From Iphione sp. A-MEVVRFRX5 (lineage: Eukaryota): a stretch of 64,000 nt of DNA. The DNA lies in contig OZ320316.1 of the NCBI GenBank assembly GCA_976226885.1, forward strand, positions 107,818,001-107,882,000. The letters run 5' to 3'. Both the position numbers and the translations under genes were made by a program. Of the stretch, positions 46,218-64,000 are shown one piece after another; the first letter of the stretch is position 1, and each line of letters opens with the position of its first letter. The notes beneath the pieces are model-generated. The model was not told where the DNA came from. It saw nothing but the letters and a program-made list of their open reading frames with translations, and made no database searches.

Positions 46218-47120
46218 TGTAATGTTGTCTGTGGCACCACAGCCACTTGTACTGTACTTGGTGAACTCTAGAATTAACGCTGACTGTGGCCTCGCAGTCG
46301 TATGTAGTGGTAGACACATGTACTGTACTTGGGGAACGCTAGAACGGACGTTGACTGTGGCACTGCAGTCGTATACAGTAGTAGATACATGTACTGTACT
46401 TGGTGAACTCTAGAATTAATGTTGACTGTGGCACCGCAGTCGTATGTAGTAGTAGATACATGTACTGTACTTGGCGAACTCTAGAATTAATGTTGACTGT
46501 GGCACCGCAGTCGTATGTAGTAGTAGATGCATGTACTGTACTTGGTGAACTCTAGGAACAATCTCGGCTGCGGCACCACAGCCAGCCAGGGTAACTATGT
46601 CGTAGTAATTTAGAAAAATGGTCATGGCCTGTGGCATCACAGGCAAGTTGTATGGCCCTGAGCCCTGGATGCCCAGGCATCTGTAACTTCGTATCTGATT
46701 GCTCTGAGATGATTGGTAGAGAGTAAGGCACACACCACATGTTGTAACAGTTTTATTCCATGAATGATACATCGTATGGATCACATGACCAGGAGTTTGA
46801 CTATAAATATGGGCCCTGTGTGGCCAATAAAACAGTTTGCACTTGGAACTCACTAGTGGACCTTGTTGATTGGGGATGTAACAAACCCACTTGGATTACC
46901 TAGGGTTGACACTTGGATGTAACCGCACTGGGACTACAGTGAAGTAACTGAGACAGGATAGCACTTATCAATAGTTGGATTCACCAAGTGGGAAATTCAA
47001 CAGGGGAATTATCCTGGAGTTAGTAACTGGACATAGCCTCACTGGAATTACAGTGGAGTAACTAAGGGAGCTAGCATTTAGTTGGATTACACCAAGTGGA
47101 GGAGTTAACCAAACATTACA
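46218..47120 (+). repeat. 5' LTR of gypsy 2 (903 bp)
   Basis: TGTAATG…CATTACA. TATAAA at 46802 and AATAAA at 46826. I saw only 3 substitutions relative to the 3' LTR by eye. Confidence 0.98.
46248..46555 (+). repeat. 71-bp tandem array (4 full copies + 1 partial) in LTR U3; also at 56505-56812
   Basis: Units start at 46248, 46319, 46390, 46461 and 46532 (TGTACTGTACTTGGTGAACTCTAG…). Confidence 0.95.
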
Positions 47121-47121
47121 C

Positions 47122-47139
47122 TGGTGGCAGCGGTGGGAT
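47122..47139 (+). promoter_or_regulatory. Primer-binding site for tRNA-Leu
   Basis: TGGTGGCAGCGGTGGGAT lies 1 nt after the LTR. It is complementary to the …ATCCCACCGCTGCCA-CCA end of tRNA-Leu. Confidence 0.9.
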
Positions 47140-47152
47140 AATCAACAGCAAG

Positions 47153-47992
47153 ATGGCAACTCAGTACGTGGCAGTGGATGAGGAAGTGCAAATTCGGGTT
47201 CCCAGCCCAGCACATGCGGGCGAGGAAGAGGAAGAAGGTGAGAAGTTTGAACTAGCCCCTGAGGAACCCCTGAAGATGAACGCCATGAAGCCTGAATGCT
47301 TCGATGGGAAGACCGTGGATTGGGACAGTTGGATAGGACAATTCACAGAGTGGGCGGACGCTTGCAAGTGGAGTGAGAACACCCGCTGTTCTGCCCTGAC
47401 GCTTTCGCTCACTGGCCCAGCGCGTATGTATTATGGAGATTTACCACCGGAGGACAAGCGGGATTATGGATCCCGTGTGACGGCGCTTGAGCGACGTTTT
47501 GGCAGGCGATGTGACCGGGTGGTGGCCATGCAGAAGCTCTCTAGCATCCGCAGGCAGAAGGACGAGGATGTCCGGGACCTGGCTGACCGGGTGAGGCGTC
47601 TGGTAAGGAGTGCCTACCCCGACGTGTCTGGGGAGACTCGGGAACTGGCCGCCGTGGCTGCCTTTCAGCGATCGTTGGTCGACTCCCTCCACCTCAAATG
47701 CCTGGAGGCGAAGTGTACCACGTTGGACGCGGCAGTACAGGTAGTGGAGACTCAGGAACGATTCGTCACTAAGAGGGTACAGGTGGTACAGGCCCCGTCA
47801 ACCCCAGCGTGGACAAAGCCTATGGAAGAGCTCACTAAGGAACTTGCCAAGATCCGAGAGGAGATGCAAGCTCGAGAGGAAGCAAGGAACAAGAGGCCGC
47901 GCTACACTAAATGTTTCCAATGTGGACAAGAGGGCCATTTCCGGCGTGATTGCCCTGAGTTACAGGGAAACGGACCTCAGTCGACCAATTAG
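47153..47992 (+). CDS. gag: gag of gypsy 2
   Basis: ATG in AAGATGG context. Contains FDGKTVDW…QFTEWA, RQKDEDV and the knuckle CFQCGQEGHFRRDC. Confidence 0.93.
   Translation: MATQYVAVDEEVQIRVPSPAHAGEEEEEGEKFELAPEEPLKMNAMKPECFDGKTVDWDSWIGQFTEWADACKWSENTRCSALTLSLTGPARMYYGDLPPEDKRDYGSRVTALERRFGRRCDRVVAMQKLSSIRRQKDEDVRDLADRVRRLVRSAYPDVSGETRELAAVAAFQRSLVDSLHLKCLEAKCTTLDAAVQVVETQERFVTKRVQVVQAPSTPAWTKPMEELTKELAKIREEMQAREEARNKRPRYTKCFQCGQEGHFRRDCPELQGNGPQSTN
47965..47971 (+). promoter_or_regulatory. -1 ribosomal frameshift heptamer G GGA AAC
   Basis: The heptamer is correctly phased in the gag frame, and pol is in the -1 frame. Confidence 0.75.
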
Positions 47993-48033
47993 GCCAGGAT
48001 GGTACGACTGGGATAGCTTTAACGGGGACTACA

Positions 48034-51000
48034 ATGGAACCAGGTCAGGGACCACGACTGAAGGTAAGCCTTGATGGAAGATCGTTAGAACTGTTGATCG
48101 ATACTGATGCCGAGGTATCCATTGTTAACCCCCGTGTGGTCCCTGGCCTGGAGGAGAGGGGTTCACTGACGTGTATCACTGGGGCGGGAGGGCATGTTAT
48201 CCCTACTTTGGGACACCGCACCTGCAAATTAGAAATAACGGGCAAGAGTTTTCAACACCATTTCCTAGTGGCCGAAGTAGAAGAAGATGGCATCCTAGGT
48301 AGTGACTTTCTGTGCCAACATAGGGCGGTGATTGATTTAGCCAAACAAGAGATAGCCCTGAAAAATGGCGTCCCTAGATGCCGCCGGGTGGTGAAACGGG
48401 AGGTGGAGATCCGAGTGGCTCATGATGTGACTCTGCCACCTGGGGAGGGGGTTGCTGTGCTAGTGAACTACAATGGGGGGGCACCCCTGATGATTGAAGG
48501 GCTGCTGGATTCACAGTGGAATAACGGGGTGATTGGAATGAGATGCCTGGTAGAAGCCACCCTGCCCATGTGGAACACGACCGAATTGGAAATATTCCTG
48601 AAACAGGGAACCCAGGTGGCCGTGGGGGTCCCCGCCCGTCCCTGGGACGAAACGTCAGTGACTCCCCAGAAGAGTGTGTGTGCCATAAGAAGGGCAGTGG
48701 CTGACGTGATACAGGAGTTGGTGGGGTCCACCACGAAGACCCTTACCCCGGACCAGCAGGGACGTTTGAGGTGGTTGCTCAGGAAACACAGTCTTGCCTT
48801 TGCCCGGGACCGGGGTGACCTAGGGTGCACAGATGTAGTACAACATCGCATCTACACCGAAGATCCACACCCTATCAAGCAGCCTCCGCGGCGCATGTCC
48901 TCGCAAAAAGACAAGAGGAATGGAAACTGGTGAATGAAATGAAAAACCAGGGAGTGATTGTCGAGAGTAACAGCCCGTGGTCCAGCCCGGTAGTGATGGT
49001 CAGAAAAAAGGATGGGACGACTCGGTTCTGCGTCGACTATAGGAAGCTAAACGAGAAGACGAGGGTTGATGCCTACCCACTACCAAGGATCGACGACTCA
49101 TTGAGTACCTTGTCGGGGGCTAAATATTTCTGCTCCCTGGACTTGGCATCCGGATACTGGCAGGTCCAAATGCACCCAGAAGATCGGGAAAAGACGGCAT
49201 TCTCCACGTCCATAGGGCTATACGAGTTTACCGTCATGCCATTTGGGTTGATCAATGCACCAGCAACGTTCGAGCGCCTGATGGACACAGTGTTACGTGG
49301 CTTGACATGGGAACAATGCCTAGTGTACCTAGATGATATACTGGTGTTCGGAAGGACCTTCCAGGAAACCCTGGCCCGCTTGGATCGGGTGTTGACACGG
49401 CTCTCGGCGGCAGGACTGAAGCTGAAACCGTCAAAATGTCAGCTGTTCCTGCAAGAAATAGGTTTCTTAGGACATATCGTTTCACCTAAAGGGGTGGCTA
49501 CGGATCCCAGCAAGACGAAGAACATTGAGGAATGGCCAACTCCAACCTGCACGACAGAGGTACGTGCCTTTCTAGGCCTCTGTTCGTATTACCGGCGTTA
49601 CGTGCCACACTTTGCGAATGTGGCAGCCCCTCTGAACCAGCTAACCAGTGCCAAGACGCCTTTCACATGGGGGAAGTCGGAAGAAAAGGCTTTTCAGGAG
49701 CTGAAGTCAGCCCTCGCTACCAGCCCGATCCTGGGGTACCCACGACCTGAAGGACGCTATTTCCTAGACACGGATGCCAGCAATGTGGGGTTGGGGGCCG
49801 TGCTCGCCCAATGGCAGGAGGGACGAGAGGTGGTACTGGCGTACTATAGCCGCAGTCTGAGCGAACCTGAGCGGCGGTATTGTGTGATGCGTAGGGAGCT
49901 GCTCGCGGTGGTAGCGGCCCTGAAACATTTCCACTTCTACCTGTATGGACAAGAAGTCACTGTGCGTACTGATAACGGAGCTGTAAGCTGGCTTCGTCGG
50001 ATCAAGGATCCGGAGGGGCAACTGGCACGCTGGCTGGAACGGGTAGGGCAGTACAATATTCACTTGGAGCACCGAGCTGGCCGATTGAATGCCAATGCGG
50101 ATGCCCTCTCCCGCCAACCCTGTCGGCAGTGTAAACAGGAACACCTACTTGAAGAGGGGGTAACCCAGAAGGTGAGGGCGGTAACCCGCAGCCAGGCAGT
50201 GGGGACCCAACATCCAGAACTGAGAACGGCTCAACTCCAGGACGAGTGTGTAGGGCCGATCCTTAAAGCCCTGGAACTGGACCCTCAACAACCCCCCTGG
50301 GAGTGGGTGGCCCCATTGTCAGCTGCGACTAAGAGCCTCTGGAGACAGTGGAGCCGACTCACCTTGACGGATGGTCTTCTGCAGCGTAGATGGACTGGCC
50401 TCGGAGGGGACCCCTCTCGGCTGCAGGTGGTCCTACCAGCCGTACTCCGTGAAAAGGCCTTCAAGGAAGTACACGCGGGGCAAACCGGGGCGCACCTGGC
50501 CGCCGAGCGAACCACTTACCTGGTATCGTTGGCTTACTATTGGCCAGGGATGAGAGAAGACACCGCAACCTGGTGCAAGAGCTGCCACTGCGCCCTGTTG
50601 AACCAGAACCCACTTCGTCCCCAAGTGCCACTCAAACCTTATTTGTCAGGGGAGCCTATGGAGCGATGGTCCATGGATGTGGCGGGGCCTCTGCCGTTGA
50701 CTGAACGAGGGAACCGCTATATCTTAATGGTGGGCGACCACTTCACCAAGTGGCTTGAGGCATTCCCGCTACCAGACCAAAAGGCTCCTCAGGTTGCTCG
50801 GATTTTGGCGGAAGAGGTAATCGCCCGTTATGGCTGCTTCCATGAACTACACAGCGACCAAGGAACTAACTTCTGCAGCGAGATCATCACAGCCCTCTGC
50901 GACTACCTTGACATTAAGAAGACCAGAACCACCCCCCGCCATCCACAGAGCGACGGTTTCATCGAACGAAGTTTTCGCACACTTGGAAAAATGATCAAGG

Positions 51001-51593
51001 CACACTGCTTTGAGAGTCGGGATGAGTGGGACACCGCACTTCCTTTTCTGATGATGGCTTACCACGCCTCACCCCAGGCTAGCACTGGTTACACTCCGAA
51101 TTACCTCATGTTCGGACGGGAGATAACCCTTCCAGTGCATGCGGTGGATGGTCTCCCTCAAAAGACTCCTACTACGGAGGACTTACCTGATCCCGTGGGA
51201 GGAATGGTTCGGCGTCTCCAAGCAGCGTACAGTAGAGTCCGGGAGAAGTTGGGCACGGCGGCCCGAGCCCAGGCCCGGGCGTACGATCGGAGGGTGAGGG
51301 GGGACGCCTTGGAGGCAGGGGCGGCGGTATGGCTCCATGAAGCCCAACCCCCAAAAGGAAAGAGCCCCAAAACCCATTTCTCTTGGTCGGGGCCGTGGCT
51401 AGTCATACGGGCCCTGGATGATGAGCGAATGGTGGTACAACGCTCGAAACAGGCAAGGCCGAAAGTCGTACATAGGAACCGTTTACGGCTGTACCGGGGG
51501 GATCAATTACCCCGGTGGATCGTCTCCTGGCGCAGGAAAAGCGAGGGCCCCGCCCCCCCCGCGAGGGGTGAGACCTCTTCCCGGAAGGCCTAA
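48034..51593 (+). pseudogene. pol: pol of gypsy 2 (PR-RT-RH-IN); 1-nt frameshift near 48900 and protease motif DTD
   Basis: Contains LLIDTDAEVSIV, RFCVDYRKLN, YLDD, LDTDAS, HHCC-like region, SDQGTNF…DGFIER and WSGPW. Confidence 0.95.
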
Positions 51594-52415
51594 TAAGGAG
51601 ATGGGGGGCGAGAAAGCCCGCTGGGACCCAGCGTCCCGCAGACTCGGAAAGAATGAAGAGTCGGGAAGTAGGATGATAAACGTCCTGGCGATGCTCGAAA
51701 ATGTTCATGTAGGGTGACGGCCGCCCGGAGCCGAAAGGGCTCAGAATGGCCGCTATGGGTGCGACAGGCGACCCGGAAGCCATCGGCTCGAAACGACCTG
51801 TGAAGAGGGGAGGCCCCCTGGTAGCACTCGAAAAGTCCGTGGGGCAAAAAGGGAACGCCCGGAAGCACATTGCGCACTCGAAATTCCCTGGAGGAGGATG
51901 GACATCCTGGGGTTTTGACCCGGCCCAGAAAGTCCAGGTAGGAGGACGGACCTCCTGGAGATGCACGAAAGGCCTGAGGAGGGAGGATGAACACCCTGGA
52001 GCACGCGAAACATTTATGAAGCGGGTAGGGAGTGAACGTCCCGGAGACGGCGGAGCTCGAAACGATTCGGTACGGATTGGCGGATGGGAGACGGTGAGAC
52101 CCCAAATAGGACAGGGTTACTTTACCCAAGATGCTGTCCTTGTCCTCTCGACGAAGGGGGGTAGTTACACGGCCAAGATGCGGTCCACTTTCCTCTGGAG
52201 GGGCCCAGTTGCGGTCCGTTTCCTCTAGTAGACCGGTCGAGGGGAAGCAGAGGCTGCCTTTAGACACCTTTAAGAGAGAGAAAGACTTAAGAACCTTACA
52301 GAAAGGAAAACCACAGGGAGACGACTAACAGGTAACTGAAATTTATTTAACAACTCTTAATGCTGCAACAGGATCTATTTACATATTCACAATATTTACA
52401 TATTTAGTTGGACAG

Positions 52416-53286
52416 TTAGTCGGACAGCACGATCGGGAAGGACGCGCAGTCCCCCCGGCAGAGGCCTGGGTAACATTGGCAGAGGATGTCAGTTGGCATT
52501 TCCTCCAGCAGGGCCCGATCTAGTAGGGGGGTCCCCCTGTCGGGAGTGTCATTGATGGATGTGGTGCTGGAGGAGGAGGGAGAAGCCGGAAACCACGGCG
52601 GAGAGTCCAACGACAAGGAAGGGGAAGGAGGAGCAGACGGCAGCGGCGAGAACAGGTCGCTTAGGTCCTGGTCCGACCCCCAAGGGTCGAGACGGCTGGA
52701 CGTCAGCGTCGAGGCAGTCCCGTCTGTGCCCGCGTAGCTGTCGGTGGAGGAGAGAGAGGCACGATCATCTATGCCTAGGGCCCAGGCTGGGATATCACGA
52801 GGGGCCGAAGGACTGCAGTCGGCCCATGGAACGGCGGGAGAGGTGGCCAGACTAGTGTAGCTCGAATCCGGAGTGAGAGACGCTAGTGTCTCCTCCACGT
52901 CCCGAAGCCCCAAGTCAGGGGAGACGGCCTCATTCCGATCGACACACCACCATGGATCGTGTATGGTGGGAAGAGGCGGCTCTGACGGTCCCGCAGGATG
53001 GACCACCACGTCCAGAACGTGATCCGGGCCGAAGAGGCGGACATAGCCAGGCGACGCGATGTACAGCGGCGTGTCCAAGACGTTGTAGAGACCGTACACG
53101 CGTAAAGAGGGCCCTGGGGTGGTGACGTCTATGTGCCTATAGTACGCATCAGGAACGGCGTACCTGCAAAACCAAGAGGCACAGGTAAAAGAAAACGGCG
53201 TACCTGCAAAACCAAGAGGCACAGGTAAAAGGAAAAAAATTTGTGCCCACGGTGCACATCAGGAATGGCATCCACAGCACAGTACA

Positions 53287-53322
<36 letters not shown>

Positions 53323-53356
53323 TTACACCACTCAAGGACACTTACCTTCTAACCAT
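52416..53356 (-). CDS. Spliced antisense accessory gene of gypsy 2 (about 252 aa, acidic and Ser/Pro-rich)
   Basis: ATG at 53356, donor AG|GTAAGT at 53346/53345 and acceptor TTTTGCAG|G at 53164/53163 join in frame to the open frame ending at 52416. Minus-strand AATAAA at about 52342-52347. Confidence 0.6.
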
Positions 53357-53677
53357 CTGGATGGCAGCAAGGAGGACACACAGGCTGGAGATGAAGGGAT
53401 GCTTCACCCACCAGAGTCTGACCTTAACCTATGAAGAGAAAAGTTGAACAGAACCCTAACAACAACAAACTGAATTCCAGAACCATAAAATACAAAATGA
53501 CTGAAGCTGGAGACAATAGGGAACTTACTGGTTCTCAGTGGGAGGATAGGCCATGAGCCAGCTGGGTAGGTGATAGCTGCCACTTTCCATGATGTGGATG
53601 CTTTGAAGTCAGTTGAGGAACTAACGCCGAGGCCCGGATAGCGAGGGCTCTTATAACCACACGAAGCGCGAAAGCGA

Positions 53678-54171
53678 CTGTGGCGCCACAGGCAAGAGAG
53701 GGGAACCGAACTACGCAGTACGCCGAGCGGCTGTGGCCCCACAGGCACATATTGCCGAAAGTCTGTTGGCTGCTAAAATCCGACGAAAATTTGCGGAAAC
53801 GGCTTGAAAGGTTCCCACTTCGTAAAGAAAAGCATTAAATTCCACCCTGTGGCCCCACAGCGATAGAAAAGAAAAAAAACAGTGACTGCGGAACCGCAGC
53901 CAAACGTAAACTTCCGCCCAGCTTCAAAATAAGGCTCTTCAGCTCGGGAGTGCGGGAGAAAGAGAGGAGGATATGAAGCTGGACCTTCTGGGCCAGTAAG
54001 AACAACGACCAGGGCAAAGAAGTCGAAGGGAACCGCACCGCAGAAGCTTCGACGCTAGCTCGACGGCTGTGGTGCCACAGGGAGTGGAGGACGCATACAA
54101 GGTGAATAAACTGACTGCGGACCCACAGCTGTACCGAGTGGAGGGCATCAGAAACGCTTGTGGTTCCGCAG
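53678..54171. promoter_or_regulatory. Cluster of palindromic CTGYGGNNCCRCAG sites between the divergent accessory genes
   Basis: Perfect copies at 53678, 53731, 53847, 53886, 54067 and 54115, and a near-perfect copy at 54158. Minus-strand TTATAA at 53651-53656. Confidence 0.8.
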
Positions 54172-54187
54172 CCGCCGAGCGCCGACA

Positions 54188-55558
54188 ATGCCGCGCAAGA
54201 AGGTAAGTGGCAAACGGTGGCCCAGTAAGCTGACACCAGACTTACAGCTTACCCCAGAGGCCAAGATCTGTACCAGGTGTGTTGTACCACGTCCATTCAA
54301 GAATCAGGATTCATATGATCGTCATGTACATGATAAGCATGAGGGGGGGCGGGGCCGTGATATCATGTGCCTTTGGTGTTCGGTGGTGATAAACGATGAA
54401 CACTACTGGGTTACCCACCAGCGACGCTACCACCCCTGGGCCGTGGACTTCGGTTTAACCGAGAAACCTTACCGATGTCTCTACGATGTGGCGAGTGGGG
54501 GGCCTCGGATCGTCGCTGCCCCAGATGACGAACTGACCACTATTCTTATGCGTGCCCGCCGGGCCCGAGAGGAGGGATGGGTGCTTACTCAGCAAGATGT
54601 GGAGCACATGTTGGCCGAGTGCCCGCAACGGGCGAACCCCCCGCCACTGCCCCGTCAGTGCAGGATCGGGGGCCCCGTTGGGGAGGGGTCGGGGGCTGCC
54701 TCCTCCGCACAGGCGGCACCGGTTTCCCCACCCTGTGAGGCCCCCGCCGTGGAACCGGCGATTGGAGAGGTTGCGGCAACACCTGAGGAACGACGGCCGG
54801 CCACTCCTGGGTCCGACACGGCCTGTACGCCATCGCGGGTGCCAACTCAAGGGAAAGCCTGGCCCGCTGGCATCCGAGACGAGCCTTCACTCCTGGGGGA
54901 GGGCCATCTGGCCCGGCTGGCCGCCTATACCCTGTGGCCGCGGCGGCGACCGCATGTGACCGGACGCGTGCAGGACAGCCTCTCTGGCCTCTTCCCTCCA
55001 CATGTGGCCACTATGCGGAGCCAACTCGTGCCAGGCCCGGTCCGTCTACCACCTGTCATCACCTGGCCTCCCCCGCACTGGGACACACTCTCTCCGGTCC
55101 AGCGGTTGATGACATCATTATCTTTGGCCTGGGTGCTCCAGTTAGCGGAAGGAGGTGGGCCACTCCCCCCTACTGTGTTGGAACCACTGCGACAGAGGCC
55201 CGCCCTTCTCCTGCCCGGGATGGCACTCCCTCAGCCGCAGGACTGGGGAAACGTAGACGATATACTCGCCCGGAACAATCATACCGTTACTGTCGCAGAA
55301 AACCTCATTAAGGATCTCCAGAGGGAGGGAGGACAAGATAGGGGCCCTAGGGCCACCAACGCAGTTCGGTGGTTACGTGAAAGAGACGACGCGCGGATGC
55401 AGCAGGACCAGCAGTCCCCTACCCTGTATGACGTCTGTCATCATTCAGCCCCCAGGCAACTGTTGCTGGGGACACAAGAAGTGTGGAGACGCTGCCTCAA
55501 GGGGGCGGATGGCCGACCGCACCCTGCAGCGGAGAAAGGGAGGAAGGACGGGGAGTAA
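54188..55558 (+). CDS. Accessory ORF of gypsy 2 with two C2H2-type zinc fingers (456 aa)
   Basis: Basic N-terminus PRKK…KR; fingers CTRC…FKNQDSYDRHVHDKH and CLWC…HYWVTHQRRYH; Pro/Ala-rich linker; conserved-looking C-terminal region. Confidence 0.75.
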   Translation: MPRKKVSGKRWPSKLTPDLQLTPEAKICTRCVVPRPFKNQDSYDRHVHDKHEGGRGRDIMCLWCSVVINDEHYWVTHQRRYHPWAVDFGLTEKPYRCLYDVASGGPRIVAAPDDELTTILMRARRAREEGWVLTQQDVEHMLAECPQRANPPPLPRQCRIGGPVGEGSGAASSAQAAPVSPPCEAPAVEPAIGEVAATPEERRPATPGSDTACTPSRVPTQGKAWPAGIRDEPSLLGEGHLARLAAYTLWPRRRPHVTGRVQDSLSGLFPPHVATMRSQLVPGPVRLPPVITWPPPHWDTLSPVQRLMTSLSLAWVLQLAEGGGPLPPTVLEPLRQRPALLLPGMALPQPQDWGNVDDILARNNHTVTVAENLIKDLQREGGQDRGPRATNAVRWLRERDDARMQQDQQSPTLYDVCHHSAPRQLLLGTQEVWRRCLKGADGRPHPAAEKGRKDGE

Positions 55559-56474
55559 GGTCCCGTCCAAGCCTGGAGGCTGTGCCACCGCATGTGACTA
55601 CCTCCCTTGGAGGTTTCTTTAGTCTAGCTGTTGGGGGGGGGTTCGTTAAACAAGAGTGTTACTAAAAAGTAGGAAAGGGGACCCTACCCCCCATAAAAAC
55701 CTTACTGTTTGTAATTGTTACCTGTGATGCTAAGGTTTGGAGAGTTGTGGGAAGTGACTGAAGGGGACTGTACCCCACAAAAAAAAGGAAAGGTTATACA
55801 CTCAGGTTCTCTGCCTCAGGTGAAGTATTTATAATGTTTGTTATAATGTGATGTTGATCTGTAATGATTGTTACCCATGTTACTTGCCAAATGTTACCCC
55901 CTATGGGGCCGTGGAGTGTTATCAAAGAAATGACTGGAGGGGACTGTACCCCACAAAAAAAAAAACGGGGTTCAGGTTTGTCTTATTAGAAGTTGATGAC
56001 TACATCTTTATCTCCTATGGAGACTTTACCAGATTCAGCATACATTCCAGATAATCGATTACTAAAAGGGGGGTGTTCCTGTATGTACGTGCATATTCCA
56101 GACTGTTACCGTTGATGACCAGTGAATATTGATCACTACCTCCTAGGGAGGCTTTACCAGAGTAAGCATTTACCCCAGACTGTTCCTGTATGTATGTGCA
56201 TATTCCAGACTGTTACCGTTGATGACTAGTGAGTATCGATCATTACCTCCTATGGAGGCTTTCCCAGAGTTACTAGTTGTTATCCAAGAATTGTTGAGAG
56301 TGTTATTAATGATCATCACCTCCTATGGAGGCTTTGCCAGAGTTACCAGTAGTTATCCAAGAATTGTTAGGACAACTGTTAACCTCCCTAGGGAGATTTA
56401 TGCTAGCTCAGGTTGTGCCTCCCAGGACAACCGGTTTTCACTTCCCCCGGCGGACTGTTTTAAGGTGGGGAGAG

Positions 56475-57377
56475 TGTAATGTTGTCTGTGGCACCACAGC
56501 CACTTGTACTGTACTTGGTGAACTCTAGAATTAACGCTGACTGTGGCCTCGCAGTCGTATGTAGTGGTAGACACATGTACTGTACTTGGGGAACGCTAGA
56601 ACGGACGTTGACTGTGGCACTGCAGTCGTATACAGTAGTAGATACATGTACTGTACTTGGTGAACTCTAGAATTAATGTTGACTGTGGCACCGCAGTCGT
56701 ATGTAGTAGTAGATACATGTACTGTACTTGGCGAACTCTAGAATTAATGTTGACTGTGGCACCGCAGTCGTATGTAGTAGTAGATGCATGTACTGTACTT
56801 GGTGAACTCTAGGAACGATCTCGGCTGCGGCACCACAGCCAGCCAGGGTAACTATGTCGTAGTAATTTAGAAAAATGGTCATGGCCTGTGGCACCACAGG
56901 CAAGTTGTATGGCCCTGAGCCCTGGATGCCCAGGCATCTGTAACTTCGTATCTGATTGCTCTGAGATGATTGGTAGAGAGTAAGGCACACACCACATGTT
57001 GTAACAGTTTTATTCCATGAATGATACATCGTATGGATCACATGACCAGGAGTTTGACTATAAATATGGGCCCTGTGTGGCCAATAAAACAGTTTGCACT
57101 TGGAACTCACTAGTGGACCTTGTTGATTGGGGATGTAACAAACCCACTTGGATTACCTAGGGTTGACACTTGGATGTAACTGCACTGGGACTACAGTGAA
57201 GTAACTGAGACAGGATAGCACTTATCAATAGTTGGATTCACCAAGTGGGAAATTCAACAGGGGAATTATCCTGGAGTTAGTAACTGGACATAGCCTCACT
57301 GGAATTACAGTGGAGTAACTAAGGGAGCTAGCATTTAGTTGGATTACACCAAGTGGAGGAGTTAACCAAACATTACA
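56475..57377 (+). repeat. 3' LTR of gypsy 2 (903 bp)
   Basis: Copy of 46218-47120, preceded by the PPT AAGGTGGGGAGAG (56462-56474). Confidence 0.98.
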
Positions 57378-60238
57378 GTACGAAGGTCGGCCAGACATAT
57401 GTATAAATCATTTAGAAATTCACTTCATGTCCCCTATGTACGGTAGCATCTAACAACAATTATAAAGTGAAATATTTCCAGGAAGAGATGTAGTGTCTCA
57501 TCTTAATCTCAACATCTACATGAACCAAACATGTGTGCAATTTGCAAGCAAATGAAATGTATGCTTCATTATCGGGGCAATGTGACTTGGGAGTATGTAC
57601 ATATTTTTAATCATGTAAACCTCAAGCAAATATTGATGTACAATAGGCTATCTCAAAATTTCTACTTTGTAACATCTACCAATCTCTGTGTAACCCTACT
57701 CATCATCTTGAACCTCAAGACCAGGTACAGAGGAATAATGTATGTATATGACAGTGAGTTGCCCATCGAGACAAATTACGTGCTTCCTCTTTCCCAGGTG
57801 TATTATGTATCCATGCATGAACTGTGCATGTTAACCTATCCCAAGAGAAAGAAGTAATGATGCACAGTCATGGAGCAACCTGTGGCTGAAATAAAGTGGA
57901 TGTGTGGCCCAACACTTAGTTTATGTTCATCAAACGATCTGAATTAGTGTTTCAAAATGTTGTAATCAGTTATGAGTTCTTTGGTAATTAAATTTGTAAC
58001 TCAATGTGCCCTTGTGTTGTTCTTCACTTCTTAGGTTTTTTTCTTGTACCTGTACTGATCAAACCGAGGGGAGTGCCAGGTTGGGAAGCAATTGCGCTTA
58101 CTGTTTAGGCACAGATGGACCTGACATTGCTTTACCATGAAGGATATAGCATACGTGACAGTTGCGTCGGAGAGGGCTGTACTGGGGATCGTGTGGCCCG
58201 GAAAGATCCATGCTCTTTTTCTTCCTGATAGCTGGAAGGTAAATCGGTGGGCCTTCGTCATCCTGGATTCTCGCTAGTTGCCTTACCAGCTCCTCTCTGA
58301 AATCGATGTGTGTATAACCTGAAAGGTGTAAGGGCAGGTCTTGATGCAGACAGCAGTGAACTGTGATATTAGAAGCTTGATTAAATCTGTGCACTTAATT
58401 GACATGTTTCATATTTCTCATGTGTAAAATTCAGATGGAAGAAGAGTACTGACCAGCACAATGAACAAGGCCCAGTACCTCGGGGTGAGCAGCCTTCCAT
58501 TGCTTGAATAGAAGAAAACTATAACGTGGAAAAAAGCGTTTTCCACCACTTGGTTGATTTCTGAAGGCATGTGTATGACTGTATCATCTGGTCGGCAAGG
58601 TCGACGCCGCCCATGAATCGGTTGTATGAGTGAATACATCTTGGGATTCTGGTGAGCTTGTGTTGATAGGATTCGTCTTTAGATTTCCCGTTCCTGATGA
58701 CAAGAACATGGCTGTCTCCTCTGTGCATCATACTGATCATATTAACGATACGTTTGTCAAACCACTGCAAAACCAAGACATCTTCTTGAAGAACATAACA
58801 CATGTCCCCTGCCTTCACTTTCTTGGGCCATTCTTTGCCTTTCAGGACCTGTAAACACAGTTAGGTCATCTTCAACACTATGGATTGAAAGTTGACGAAA
58901 CCGTCTTTAGTCTAACTCGATGTAGTGCTATTCATAAACAAGGCCAAATATCAATGCTGAACTAATTGCATATTCTATGGTAAAACTTACAATTGGGAAG
59001 CCTTGACGCCAAGGCTGCATGGTGCCACACATCAGAGTGCCAACCTCCAACAAGTATTTGGCCAGCTAGAATGATGAGAAGAAGTTGTCACAAAATACCA
59101 TGTACCCCTGATGTAGGTATGGTTTCATCAAAGATGTGATGACATCGAATCCCAATCCATGAGAGCTTCGCTCACAACTGCGGTCAATATACACACTGAA
59201 AATTGTCATGAGAAGACATGTTAGCCATTATGTATTGGATGTATTTCAAAGCCACAAGCTGAATAACTCAACGTTATAAATTTTTCATTCCCATTATTTT
59301 AGCCCATTGCAAACTACATACTGTGATGGCTCATTTATATTCTCACTCACCTGAAATTGAATGTGTAGCCTGTCTCTGCATCGCAGAGACACCACAGTAA
59401 CCAAACCTCGTATGTTTGCTTGGCATGTATTGTTGGATAGGTGATCGTTGTTTTGAACGCACCATTCTCTCATCAATGGAAACTGTCTGCCTGGGTTGGA
59501 AATACTTCTTGTTGGCAGCACTCAGGTGATCGAGTAGGGGTCGGATTTTAGACAATTTATCATTTTCATCCTCCTCCCCAGGCTTTGAGACATGCAACAT
59601 GGCGTTAATGGCTTTAAATCTATAATATAGATTAAATCAAAATAATATATATTAACAAGTTTCAAAACAAACATTCACATGACAGGAACATATTCAAACC
59701 TCAAAACATCTACCATAAATTAATACACATGTACGCCCTTGCATTCGAATCATCATATTCTGAGTTTATCAGTCATAGCATACCTGTTCCTTGACAAGAA
59801 CCGTCGTGACCATCCCCCTGGATAGAGAGTGGCCTGTGACCAGTTTCTCTCTAAGTCACGCCTGCCATCTAATCCATGAAATATTATAAGAGCAATTAAT
59901 TGCTTCATTACCTGTAGGGAGGCTTCGTTCCAAGCTCTGTCTCTTCGATTGCCATATGATGGCTTATCAAGGATATGGAGCCACCCATATAAGTTTGTGT
60001 TGTCCACAACAGCCTGTAAAATGAATGGGTGCCTTTCTTACAACCATGCAGGATGGATTAGAATGCAAGATGAGCCAATGGTAATATTACAGTAAAATGT
60101 AATCCTGCGACATCAAAGTGTTTCTTAAGGATATGCATCATTACCTGCAATACATCTGGCATGAAGAGCCCAAAGAAGTCAATGGCTTTGGTGAATTTGT
60201 TTTTTCCAGTACGTATGATTCGATCCACCAGATGGGGT

Positions 60239-60376
60239 CAGGGCAATTAAGGGCGTTTGTCAAGAATGGTCCCCTGCCATAGTCACTCTCACCTCGGGGC
60301 GGGACTTCGTCCCAGCCCCTCGGTGAGAGTGACTCTGTCAGGGGACCATTCTTTCCAAACGCCCTTAATTGCCCTG
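60239..60376. repeat. 138-nt near-perfect palindrome/hairpin
   Basis: 60239-60293 pairs with 60322-60376 (4 mismatches). Inner stem GGGGC-GGGAC/GTCCC-A-GCCCC with a TTC loop. Confidence 0.95.
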
Positions 60377-60816
60377 TTCTAAAACTCTAACGGTGAAAGT
60401 CTGTATTGAAACTAAGACAAAGCGAGATATTCTGTCAATGGACAGAGTTACTCTTAACAAACGTTTTTCATTGGATATTGATTTTCATTCATTCATTCGA
60501 AAAGTAAACAAACAAAATGGCGGATGATATGTCGATTCAAAAAGAAAAAAAGACTAAACGTTAAATATATGCCATTAAAAGATAATTAAATAACTTCGGC
60601 AATATAAAAAGGAGCAGCAGGTCATTCTGAGAACAATATACCGTAGATAAACCAATATATGAGGAAAAATCAATTTTACATGACAAGCAGACGAAGACAT
60701 GAACGAACGAAATGGAAATGAATGCTATTGGCTAAAATCGATCACATGTCATCGATAATCAATAATGATTGGTGGAAACATTTGTTGACAAGCTGAAACG
60801 TCAGCAGGGCATCACG

Positions 60817-62643
60817 ATGGGGCGTTTTCGCCAAGGTGAATATTGCAAATTCGAGGGTAATGTCTACAAAGTCTTACTCAAGTTTCAACCAACTCATTAC
60901 CCATACTTTCTGTATCAAATACAGAGCATTGCAACTGGTGATATTCGCAATGTAGGCAGTCACCTCCTCGAAAAAATGGATTGGCAGCCGCAGACAGATT
61001 TCCAGATTGAATCATTTGATATTCCGACAGAAGTCTACGAAATATCATTCAAATCTGACAATGAAGAAATCGAAGCTACGCAGGCCTATGGTATTCCTGA
61101 TGACAACATCCAAGCCCGTGATGTTGAACCAACTCAAGCATACGAGGAAAGAAGAAGGAGCCCACCAAAGGATCCTCGTTTCAAGCGTCCGTCACCAGAG
61201 GAATTGGAAGCTGTGAAAAAGGCAAGAAACTCGAAAAAAAAAGAACAGCAAACAAAATGGGCGACAAAGTTATTCAGAGGTATTAAAAAAAATAATTTAG
61301 CTGAAACACATATCAGTTTTCGTTAATAAGACATAGTACCGGTACATATCTTACATTATTCTTAAAATTGCCTTGGTGTATTTCGTACAGGGTGGCTTGC
61401 TGCAGTGAACTACGATGCGGACTTCGAGAACGAAGCACCATCCGTTTTAGCTCAACGCCTTGAAGAATTCTACGCCAGCATCAAAACAGCAGAAAATAAC
61501 GACTACAGTCGCAGTGGGTTAAAAAACCTCCGTGCTGGGATTCAAAGGCACTTAGTATCGCCTCCATTCAACCGTAACATCAACATCGTAGCTGACCGTG
61601 AGTTCAGAACCGCCAATTTAGCGTATGAAGGACGATTAGCTAAGTTGCGTAAAGATGGAAATGACAAGGCTCAGCATAAGTTATTGATTGAGAAAGAGGA
61701 TGTCGAGAAATTATATTCCACTGTTTTTGTTCACACGCCAATAGGCTTACAACGTCAAGTTTTCTTCAACGTCGTCCTCCATTTTGGACGACGTGGAAGA
61801 GAAGGTTTACGTGAGTTAACTAAAAATTCGTTTGTTGTCTCTAAAGATTCTCAGGGTACTGAATTCGTGGCTATGTCAGCTGTAGAATGTGAGAAAACTA
61901 GGCAGGGAGTGAAGGAGGAGGATGACATCACAAACAAACGCATGTATGCTAATGCTTCCCATCCAGACAGGTGCCCTGTAAGGGCCTTCAAAGAATATGT
62001 AACGAGGTTGCACCCCGACAATATGTACTTTTTTCAGCGACCAAAAAGGAATTATAATCCGCACGAGATGATTTGGTTTGACAACATGGTGTTGGGGTGC
62101 AACACGCTCTATAACATGATGAAGGTTATGTCTAAAGAGGCATCCTTAAGCAAAATATATACAAACCACTGCATAAGGCGGACGGTTGTAACTGTTCTGG
62201 ATCATGTGGGATATTCAAATGCAAACATCCAATCTGTAACGGGACACAAAAGCGAAAAAAGTCTTGTTCCTTACCTCGGGGGTCCTTCTACCACGTGCAG
62301 AAAAAACATGTCTAATCTGTTATCTGATTACGGCAACGAAAAAGCAGTACAGCGTTTGCCATCTTCAACGATTTCAAAACCATTGGAAGGTTGTTGTACA
62401 GGTGAAAAAAATGAACAGCATGTTGCAATCGAGATGGGGAATCCATCCACGCTTGATGTTTGTAATGATGAGGTGGTAGTTCAATCGAAAGAAATTGCTG
62501 AAGTCGCTTCAACTTTGTCACAAGAAAACGTTACCTTGACACAGGTTACTATGTCAAAGGAAGAAGTAGTTCCTGCAATGTTCTCAGGCAAAACGACCTT
62601 ACATAATTGCACAATTAATTTCAATTGTATTTCCAAGAAGTAA
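60817..62643 (+). CDS. Tyrosine recombinase (DUF3504/Crypton-like), 2 exons (60817-61279, 61391-62643), about 571 aa
   Basis: A GT-AG intron joins in frame (TKLFRG|WLAAVNY). Catalytic set: FGRRGRE (R), EKTRQG (K), NHCIRRT (HxxR), TGHKSEKSLVPY (H…Y). Confidence 0.88.
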
Positions 62644-64000
62644 TTCTGAGTTGATGTGCATGCCTTCCCGCTGTTTAATGCGTCATAAAAAAAAAATTAT
62701 CCGGTACCGTTTTTCTACCGAGAGTAACTGCATAACAATTGTTCTTGTATACACAAAACAGCTAAAACGAGGAATTTACAGAATATGTGTGATTGTTACA
62801 TTGAATAAAAACCTGTTCATGTTTAAATCAGAAAAAACTTGTTTTTTCATTAAGTCTCGTTCAAAAAAAACAGAGCGTGACTTCAGATATAAACAAGACG
62901 CCATATTGAAATGATATTTGCAAGCGGACGAAAAAAGTAAGCAGATAAGCTTAAAATTACATTGACTTAATGTTCAAACTCGAATTATTATTAATAAAAT
63001 AACCAAAATATGCTATGATACAACAGTTTTCGTTTTTAGAACCGCGATTAAGTGCGTTTGTCAAGAATGGTCCCCTGCCATAGTGGAACAGTGGCGGGTT
63101 TGAATTTCCTCATAGGTGGCTGCACATCAGGGTCGTCAAATGATGAAAATCGAGAAAATAATTTTATTGAAATGATCACCCATATTAAGATCTTTACTTC
63201 ATAGTATTAATCTAATCTTAAAATATAGCAAAAAACATGTATACAAGCTGTAAATCATAGAAATATTTATGGCATTGTGGGTATACACCGTCATGACGTT
63301 GCAAACGTCACACGCCGAGTGGCGTCATGCGCTTAGCAGACGACAACAGCTACAATAAGGTAAATAATGTACAATCAAGCTCATTCTCATCACAAATCTT
63401 CTTCCCCAATCGACAAAAAGTTCCTTTTTAACATTTCTGCTATTCTCAATTTTAATTTAGTGTTGTAACAGTTATTCACAACATTCAGAAAGATAAAATT
63501 GACCTACGCACCTGACGTTCTGCCATGAAGCTCCACTCTTGGAGCTATCACTCAACCCTTCGTCTCCAAATCATACAAATCCTTGGCTAATCCTCCTGAA
63601 ATCTCTTCATTCAGTGCATCCTCTTCATCCTCAGACATCCCTACACTTCCTATAGCATCTACTACATGTACATTGTAGCCTTTTGCAATTAATTCACGGG
63701 CCTGTAAGGCCGTGCTCCTCTGAGGACGAGACATGTTGGTGACAGAAACATACACAAACACAAGTGCGGGACTGTTGTACAGTTGAATCTCTATTTACGA
63801 CCACATTGATTTCCGACCATTGTCAATTTAAGACCACTTTAGTTGGGGCACAAAAATATGAATTTCTATACATCTGATACTCTATTGTGGGCGGAGTTAG
63901 CGGAGTAGCGGAGTTAGCGGAGTTTGAGGCGGAGTGTCTAGACTCCAGGCAGAGTTTTACAGTTCCTATAAATATCGCTTCAGGGCGGAGATCGTGGTCA

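Follow-up and report, generated by a model that had tools for sequence, protein, structure and literature searches.

A putative spliced antisense gene and its divergent zinc-finger partner in a Ty3/Gypsy retrotransposon of Iphione

LTR retrotransposons are usually taken to rely on host transcription factors, without a defence against silencing. In plant and fungal elements, antisense accessory ORFs of unknown function have been described between pol and the 3' LTR (PMC7264820; PMC8365987 and PMC11963269, in part). This aORF-3R group, as it appears in the cited parts of the literature, includes gene23 of maize Grande, the ORFs of rice RIRE2, Silene Retand, and bean PvRetro13, and brtn of Botrytis Boty (PMC7264820; PMC8365987). 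The aORF-3R review mentions no intron in such genes and asks for a search for spliced antisense transcripts (PMC7264820). Three other systems come close in one respect or another. HBZ of HTLV-1, a gene that begins in the 3' LTR and overlaps with sense genes, encodes a bZIP protein (PMC3185765, in part); foamy virus Tas and Bet are both sense and derive from one transcript of a retrovirus (PMC13220597, in part); and VANC of the Arabidopsis VANDAL elements belongs to a DNA transposon, with DNA demethylation shown (PMC5735166, in part).

Here, we analyzed a stretch of 64,000 nucleotides from Iphione sp. A-MEVVRFRX5 (assembly GCA_976226885.1, contig OZ320316.1, positions 107,818,001 to 107,882,000; hereafter the window, whose own numbering is used throughout). 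The assembly measures 1.18 Gb and holds a Skp1 exon identical to arthropod records, in keeping with an animal host. Judging from the sequence, an LTR element in this window likely encodes both its own on-switch and a shield against host silencing. The element is a young Ty3/Gypsy retrotransposon at 46218-57377. Its two 903-bp LTRs (TG...CA; 46218..47120 and 56475..57377, plus strand) differ at 3 positions, and the target-site duplication GTAC is present on both flanks. The primer-binding site at 47122..47139 (+), which we take to be tRNA-Leu-like, follows the 5' LTR, and a polypurine tract lies 5' of the 3' LTR. A gag ORF with a CCHC knuckle (47075..47992, +) precedes protease and then RT-RNase H-integrase (47959..51593, +). 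Pfam matches fall in Ty3/Gypsy order (gag, then PR-RT-RNase H-integrase), and since the LTR pair, target-site duplication, primer-binding site, and polypurine tract are all present, the element bears the marks of a Ty3/Gypsy LTR retrotransposon. Near 48820-48930 the window copy has protease and RT in different frames, unlike 10 of 20 diverged elements (described below), in which a single ORF of ~1200 codons is found. The interval from pol to the 3' LTR holds two genes set back to back, the antisense gene and a sense gene of 456 aa. The ORFs 51713-52228 (sense) and 51590-52324 (antisense), situated between pol and the antisense gene, have only patchy matches in relatives, and an Rfam search of the element matched no family.

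Several further features were observed in and around the element. Tandem repeats of 73-107 nt occupy 56074-56368, 5' of the 3' LTR, and 71-nt tandem repeats occur in U3 (46218-46660), with one palindrome per unit. A short G-rich/C-rich hairpin with (A/C)CAAAAA after it recurs at 55672-55699, 55760-55783, and 55936-55959; the stretch from the finger gene to the polypurine tract has 1-4 such repeats in the window as well as in 20/20 diverged elements (L051-L070), with none beyond the LTR and none elsewhere in the window. Its stem letters change in pairs between families, and we regard the repeat as a candidate packaging or export signal. Outside the element, a unit at 60239-63084, presumably a Crypton-like DNA transposon, comprises a 425-aa ORF (61366-62643) in which DUF3504 and, weakly, a tyrosine recombinase are matched, together with a further ORF upstream and short repeats on its flanks. 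A transposase fragment lies at 58519-58860 (-; Pfam DDE_Tnp_1_7, E 1.5e-11).

The antisense gene is read on the minus strand. A TATA box and an initiator-like TTAGTT (53619..53656, with TATAA at 53655-53651) predict a transcription start near 53622. The coding part of exon 1 (53529..53590) begins at ATG 53590, in the context ACATCATGG, and runs for 20 codons and 2 bases to the donor GTAAGT at 53528; if this donor is unused, a stop follows directly. A middle exon of 83 nt (53346..53428) is bounded by the acceptor CATAG ending at 53429 and the donor at 53345. It contains a non-conserved ATG (53356) and, in the exon-1 frame, the stop TGA at 53406-53404. A T31 tract (53290..53320) separates the second donor from the branch region, and a 40-nt tandem duplication of the 3' splice site (53154..53233) places one acceptor AG at 53164 and its duplicate at 53204, use of which would shift the frame. 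The main coding exon (52416..53163) consists of 1 base, 248 codons (53162-52419), and a stop, and is free of lysine; AATAAA follows at 52342..52347. A splice from donor 53528 to acceptor 53164 keeps the frame and would yield a product of 269 aa. An earlier note on this DNA, made from its letters alone, had placed the TATA box, both donors, both acceptors and the duplicate of the second, the T31 tract, ATG 53356, the 248-codon exon, and AATAAA, and all of these were recovered where it had put them. Its statement that introns can persist in such an element only if they are antisense is too strong, given that spliced sense env-like messages occur in LTR elements such as barley Bagy2 (PMC7264820).

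Conservation was assessed in close copies (the 30 best of 52 DNA matches in the genome, the window itself included) and in diverged elements. Both donors, both acceptors, and ATG 53356 are kept in 30/30 close copies, so that the splice-site conservation on which the earlier note had made its gene depend is borne out; AATAAA is kept in 29/30. The main exon is open in 25/30, the other 5 being broken by small deletions, a stop, or truncation. Over its 248 codons, dS is 0.167 and dN 0.015 (dN/dS 0.09, in the antisense frame only), and variable columns number 43/24/115 by codon position; the antisense frame contains 1 stop among the close copies, compared with 108-239 in the other five frames. By dN/dS, codon position, and stop counts, this is a protein-coding frame kept by purifying selection. 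As a control, the same strand was scanned over 73.5 kb from the pol side; it held 0.04 strong donors per 130 nt and not a single T tract of ≥15.

A protein search of the genome returned 187 matches. Twenty diverged elements with 33-66% protein identity were taken for comparison, 14 chosen by the antisense protein and 6 by the finger protein alone. The antisense gene is present in 6/6 of the latter, and the order of gag-pol, antisense gene, and divergent sense C2H2 gene is kept in 20/20, which upholds the pairing with a sense zinc-finger gene that had been suggested. We conclude that this is almost certainly a real protein-coding gene; splice-site conservation and dN/dS support the view that it is of intron type and lies antisense within an LTR retrotransposon, as the earlier note had proposed.

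The start codon had been assigned to ATG 53356, an assignment that we correct: this ATG appears not to be the conserved start, and the middle exon appears to be non-coding in the conserved frame. The 20 diverged elements all lack ATG 53356 (L033 read by eye), as do L071 and L073-L075, and in copy L005 it is out of frame though the main exon is intact. Nor do the 20 diverged elements have any in-frame Met before the second donor (L033 by eye). By codon position, variable columns are coding-like in exon 1 (2/7/14) and not so in the middle exon (5/2/5). The conserved start, which had been missed, is very probably ATG 53590. Indeed, an exon-1 ATG, a peptide ending in a PP motif, and a donor were found in 21/21 elements (the window and the 20 diverged ones), the peptide measuring 20-45 residues in the diverged elements, and an unused exon-1 donor leads to a stop within one codon in 18/21. 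A TATA box is present in 20/20 diverged elements, usually with an initiator-like TCAGT ~30 nt on; each of these elements has an ATG in good context, and a poly(A) hexamer lies 51-162 nt past the tail in 20/21 (L033 unparsed). Although their introns cannot be aligned, all diverged elements share two successive donors, a T15-45 tract, and an acceptor rich in pyrimidines. Since the donor and acceptor search in these elements was restricted to phase 2, phase agreement is partly built in, and the informative points are therefore the fixed place of the donor behind a conserved peptide and the stop that comes one codon later. None of the four odd relatives inspected is an intron-less copy. On the sense strand, the T tract appears as an A15-45 run in the genomic RNA of every family, with lengths that differ among copies.

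This arrangement predicts a splice gate, in that the full 269-aa protein would need skipping of the middle exon (53528 to 53164). A crude score of U1 pairing favors the second donor over the first in 20/21 elements, with one tie. This donor also lies nearer the acceptor, and its use keeps the exon-1 stop and hence yields a premature stop. Because the second donor is stronger and nearer the acceptor yet leaves that stop in place, the default products are predicted to be unproductive, and the middle exon is a predicted poison exon. In the window's family, acceptor 53429 is kept down to ~72% identity, and the exon body behind it diverges and carries the exon-1-frame stop (computed for 25/30 close copies and read by eye for the remainder). 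The middle segment is not always poison, because family C permits an in-frame middle cassette of 30 nt in 4/5 elements (L033 by eye). The 40-nt acceptor duplication is found in 20/30 close copies, and selection is alike in copies with it (20; dN/dS 0.13) and without it (10; 0.12). The middle exon is doubled in 4 copies according to a close-copy survey, the source also of the L005 frame, that left 19/30 copies unparsed. A shorter product made from 53356 by re-initiation is possible in the window subfamily. A conserved splice choice of this kind could confine the accessory protein to one cell type.

The antisense proteins were compared in an alignment of 18 sequences, which leaves out L043, L046, and L048 (broken exon) and whose counts are not independent, because the 18 represent ~8 related families. 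An N-terminal block of 56 residues (52995..53162, -) is conserved and was modelled, at low confidence, as beta-rich. Also conserved are an SP(D/E) motif accompanied by a short helix, a motif of the LDPW type, a helix towards the C-terminus (52449..52508, -, weakly F-box-like), and a terminal P-I-x-hydrophobic-S-D with acidic residues, which in the window is the SIM-like motif PIVLSD (52419..52436, -). The product had been described as acidic and S/P-rich with hydrophobic-acidic motifs such as DLSDLF and a CxC..C..C tail. Its composition agrees with that description (11-15% D+E, 27-36% S+P, few basic residues), and an acidic activation domain is possible; DLSDLF, by contrast, is not conserved in the 18 proteins, which have no invariant or near-invariant Cys, and the conserved tail is SIM-like instead. 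Lysine occurs once in 4060 residues, compared with 48 expected from base composition and with 24 and 15 in the other two frames. The deficit may be partly compositional, because Asn is likewise depleted (26 vs 73 expected). Lysine deserts are enriched among ubiquitin-system proteins, according to the cited part of PMC10169902.

A loose SIM pattern is matched by the tail in 18/18 proteins and by 6.5% of shuffles. SIM patterns are degenerate. Ser and acidic residues flank the core, giving SD, SDEE, SDEDEDE, and SDDDD tails. Measured against the strict hXhh/hhXh core (PMC8616421, in part), most members have Pro instead of an aliphatic residue at the first position. The tail resembles SLS-4 of HSV-1 ICP0 (IVISDS) and the C-terminal SIM of Daxx (IIVLSDSD) in its short hydrophobic core, SD, and acidic residues (PMC3174244 and PMC8616421, both in part); this is a likeness at the level of the motif, as the antisense protein has no RING and its first core position is usually Pro. 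We consider it slightly more probable than not that the tail binds SUMO.

Homologs of the antisense protein were found neither by word search, by profile search over 1.84 billion representatives, in the Atlas, nor in Pfam; a repeat protein returned by the profile search at E 7e-6 was judged from its sequence to be a chance match. The structure model of the exon is of low confidence (pLDDT 42). An F-box identity for the conserved helix was also considered. Pfam PF12937 matched 1/10 tails at E=0.016 (15.4 bits vs a cut-off of 24.3, positions 1-22 of 47), and the window's own tail had no Pfam F-box match. With a host F-box profile, 4/13 tails beat all but ≤4 of 300 shuffles, and the window tail did not (103 of 300). 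The profile-profile probability was 15%, and a PDB sequence search gave one chance-level match (argonaute, E 1.6). With a score under the cut-off and helix 3 missing, a full three-helix F-box was rejected.

The sense partner (54188..55558, +; 456 aa) combines two C2H2-type fingers at its N-terminal end with a C-terminal domain that is helical and conserved. The finger Cys and His residues (Cx2C...Hx3-4H) are kept in 16/16 aligned members, and the model of the protein reaches pLDDT 74-95 over residues 11-160. Pfam zf-C2H2_4 scored E 0.02-0.9 on the fingers, below cut-off for both finger 1 and finger 2. The best Foldseek match was to CTCF fingers (E 0.99), the fold search gave no match at E 0.001 or Z 5, and no homologs were found, with Atlas scores <0.9. 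The protein has an acidic linker of its own; in two families (L039, L044-L047) the variable linker contains IDLT motifs, which we take to be of the classic SIM type. Among sense promoter signals before the gene, TATA was seen in 2/17 elements and an acceptor in 3/17, neither of which accounts for expression. A sense splice-donor-like site occurs in the 300 nt before the finger-gene ATG in 10/17 elements (L031-L049), compared with 0.09 expected per 300 nt, and is absent in the window copy.

Seven palindromes of the form CTGYGG-NN-CCRCAG lie between the divergent genes (53678..54171). The 64-kb window contains 21 in all, namely these and seven in the U3 of each LTR, with 0 elsewhere. Other families have different palindromes. 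The class present at the internal promoter is also that of U3 in 19/20 elements, by classes written after the data had been seen (the helix/palindrome survey, which left 9/30 close copies unparsed, and four LTRs) and in a matrix without L048 (no LTR found, assessed at the internal promoter only). A blind 9-mer test of promoter against U3 gave 8.7 shared words within families (60 cells) and 1.9 between them (340 cells). In this test 12/20 elements exceeded the maximum of 100 shuffles and 8 did not; L032, L033, L034, L036, and L039-L041 were at or under it.

The palindromes appear to co-vary with the second finger. Helix DEHYWVTH goes with CTGYGG across four different first-finger helices, and other pairs of finger-2 helix and half-site are DEYYW-CTACGG, D(M/E)YAW-TTGGG, DEQSW-TCGTGG, HEQSW-TGGCGG, and DTQSW-TCGTGT. 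DEHYWVTH stays with the same palindrome even where finger 1 and the remainder of the domain have diverged to ~52-55%, and a changed palindrome comes with a changed helix. In a pol tree of elements from the Iphione genome, AW helices and QSW helices each appear in the two main clades, and their half-sites match. The physical linkage and common descent of helix and palindrome count against taking their co-variation as evidence of binding. All in all, we think it probable that the two-finger protein binds the palindromes of its family, and the presence of at least 8 natural helix/palindrome pairs makes sequence-specific self-recognition testable by cross-family binding. The modules also recombine, as in L043, which has pol from one family and the antisense gene from another. 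Among close copies (L001-L030) whose antisense proteins are 96-99% identical, finger domains range from 50% to 99% identical.

Taken together, these features lead us to favor, tentatively and at somewhat less than an even chance, an antisense protein that acts as a splicing-gated, SUMO-binding anti-silencing factor switched on by the zinc-finger protein. The two-finger protein would bind the palindromes, probably as a dimer, and activate the LTR and the internal promoter. Most antisense transcripts would then splice from the downstream donor, which is the stronger one, or include the middle exon, and would run into a premature stop. Full protein would be made only where the weaker exon-1 donor joins the last acceptor, with the U tract as a candidate site of control. 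The 269-aa protein would dock by its tail on SUMOylated silencing factors and displace them or hand them over to degradation, and its lack of lysines may allow it to escape its own ubiquitylation. We hold as more doubtful the complete two-gene circuit, which would combine a zinc-finger master switch, whose finger-2 helix co-evolves with the LTR and internal-promoter palindromes, with an antisense, splicing-gated, lysine-free, ICP0-like SUMO-targeting counter-silencer.

SIMs are able both to recruit and to oppose repression, a point against the anti-silencing reading. An unlikely alternative is an HBZ- or Bet-like negative-feedback or latency factor: after the finger protein had switched the element on, the antisense protein would bring in SUMO-dependent repression or titrate co-activators. 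The layout and the SIM-like tail are compatible with this as well; HBZ, a spliced antisense product, represses sense transcription (PMC3185765, in part), and Bet, set by splicing, suppresses the internal promoter (PMC13220597, in part). Repeated attenuating changes, such as the acceptor duplicated in 20/30 copies and the middle exon doubled in 4, would suit a feedback factor but fit a toxic activator equally well, and no repressor domain was recognised in the antisense protein. We judge it improbable, too, that the protein is an acidic co-activator giving the DNA-binding finger protein an activation domain. The acidic, S/P-rich composition, conserved hydrophobic-acidic patches such as LDPW, and the constant pairing with the finger gene speak for such a role; against it, the motifs first named (e.g., DLSDLF) are not the conserved ones, the finger protein already has an acidic linker, and activation domains would rarely need a fixed hydrophobic-acidic terminus, a dN/dS of 0.09, or the loss of lysine.

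Lysine depletion and the weak F-box-like helix (PF12937 in 1/10 tails; 4/13 tails against shuffles) could instead point away from chromatin, to a factor of the particle or of post-transcriptional counter-defence, such as an SCF-type adaptor directed against a host restriction factor. We give this little credence, as the window tail fails against shuffles, the profile-profile probability is 15%, helix 3 is missing, and the F-box idea arose after the alignment had been seen. It is likewise quite unlikely that the main product is a 252-aa protein from ATG 53356, with exon 1 non-coding. In close copies that ATG and its frame are kept in 29 or 30 of 30, the middle exon is the least diverged segment (0.028), and re-initiation past the short upstream frame might take place; however, the ATG is missing from the diverged elements and the four further relatives named above, and coding-like variation is found in exon 1 and not in the middle exon. 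Finally, the chance that there is no functional gene, the motifs being fortuitous or the RNA antisense with an incidental frame, seems very slight. The missing homologs outside the Iphione genome and the fold at pLDDT 42 would agree with it, but dN/dS, third-position bias, and a protein conserved across families whose introns are unalignable do not.

Outside Repbase, Dfam, and the subscription journals, literature searches turned up no animal Gypsy element described as having a divergent finger/antisense pair, and the parts of PMC13486581, PMC5408684, PMC8220671, and PMC10665810 that were covered hold nothing closer. The element supplies two orphan protein families, and the role of antisense accessory genes, an open question in PMC7264820, becomes testable in an animal. 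With the aORF-3R genes, the Iphione gene shares position, orientation, presence in most copies, an orphan protein, and an upstream promoter of its own, which was demonstrated in Grande and is predicted here. It differs in its animal host, its two conserved donors with a predicted unproductive splice, and its divergent sense C2H2 partner; in the Pfam and database searches, no match links it to aORF-3R members (Transposase_28, SMC-like).

The likeness to HBZ lies in a spliced antisense retroelement protein gene with its ATG in a short first exon (PMC3185765, in part), whereas the Iphione gene has a predicted internal TATA promoter, no overlap with sense genes, and no bZIP. Like foamy virus (PMC13220597, in part), the element would encode a DNA-binding factor acting on the LTR and an internal promoter, with binding inferred in our case, and a second accessory protein set by splicing; unlike it, the two are divergent genes in a Gypsy element. 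The anti-silencing protein VANC recognises short, often tandem targets that differ between related VANDAL families (PMC5735166, in part), as the palindromes do here, but is a different protein, and the Iphione element, known from its sequence, has C2H2 fingers and palindromes. The circuit thus appears to work like a mix of HBZ, foamy virus Tas/Bet, and VANC, yet to be a member of none of them.
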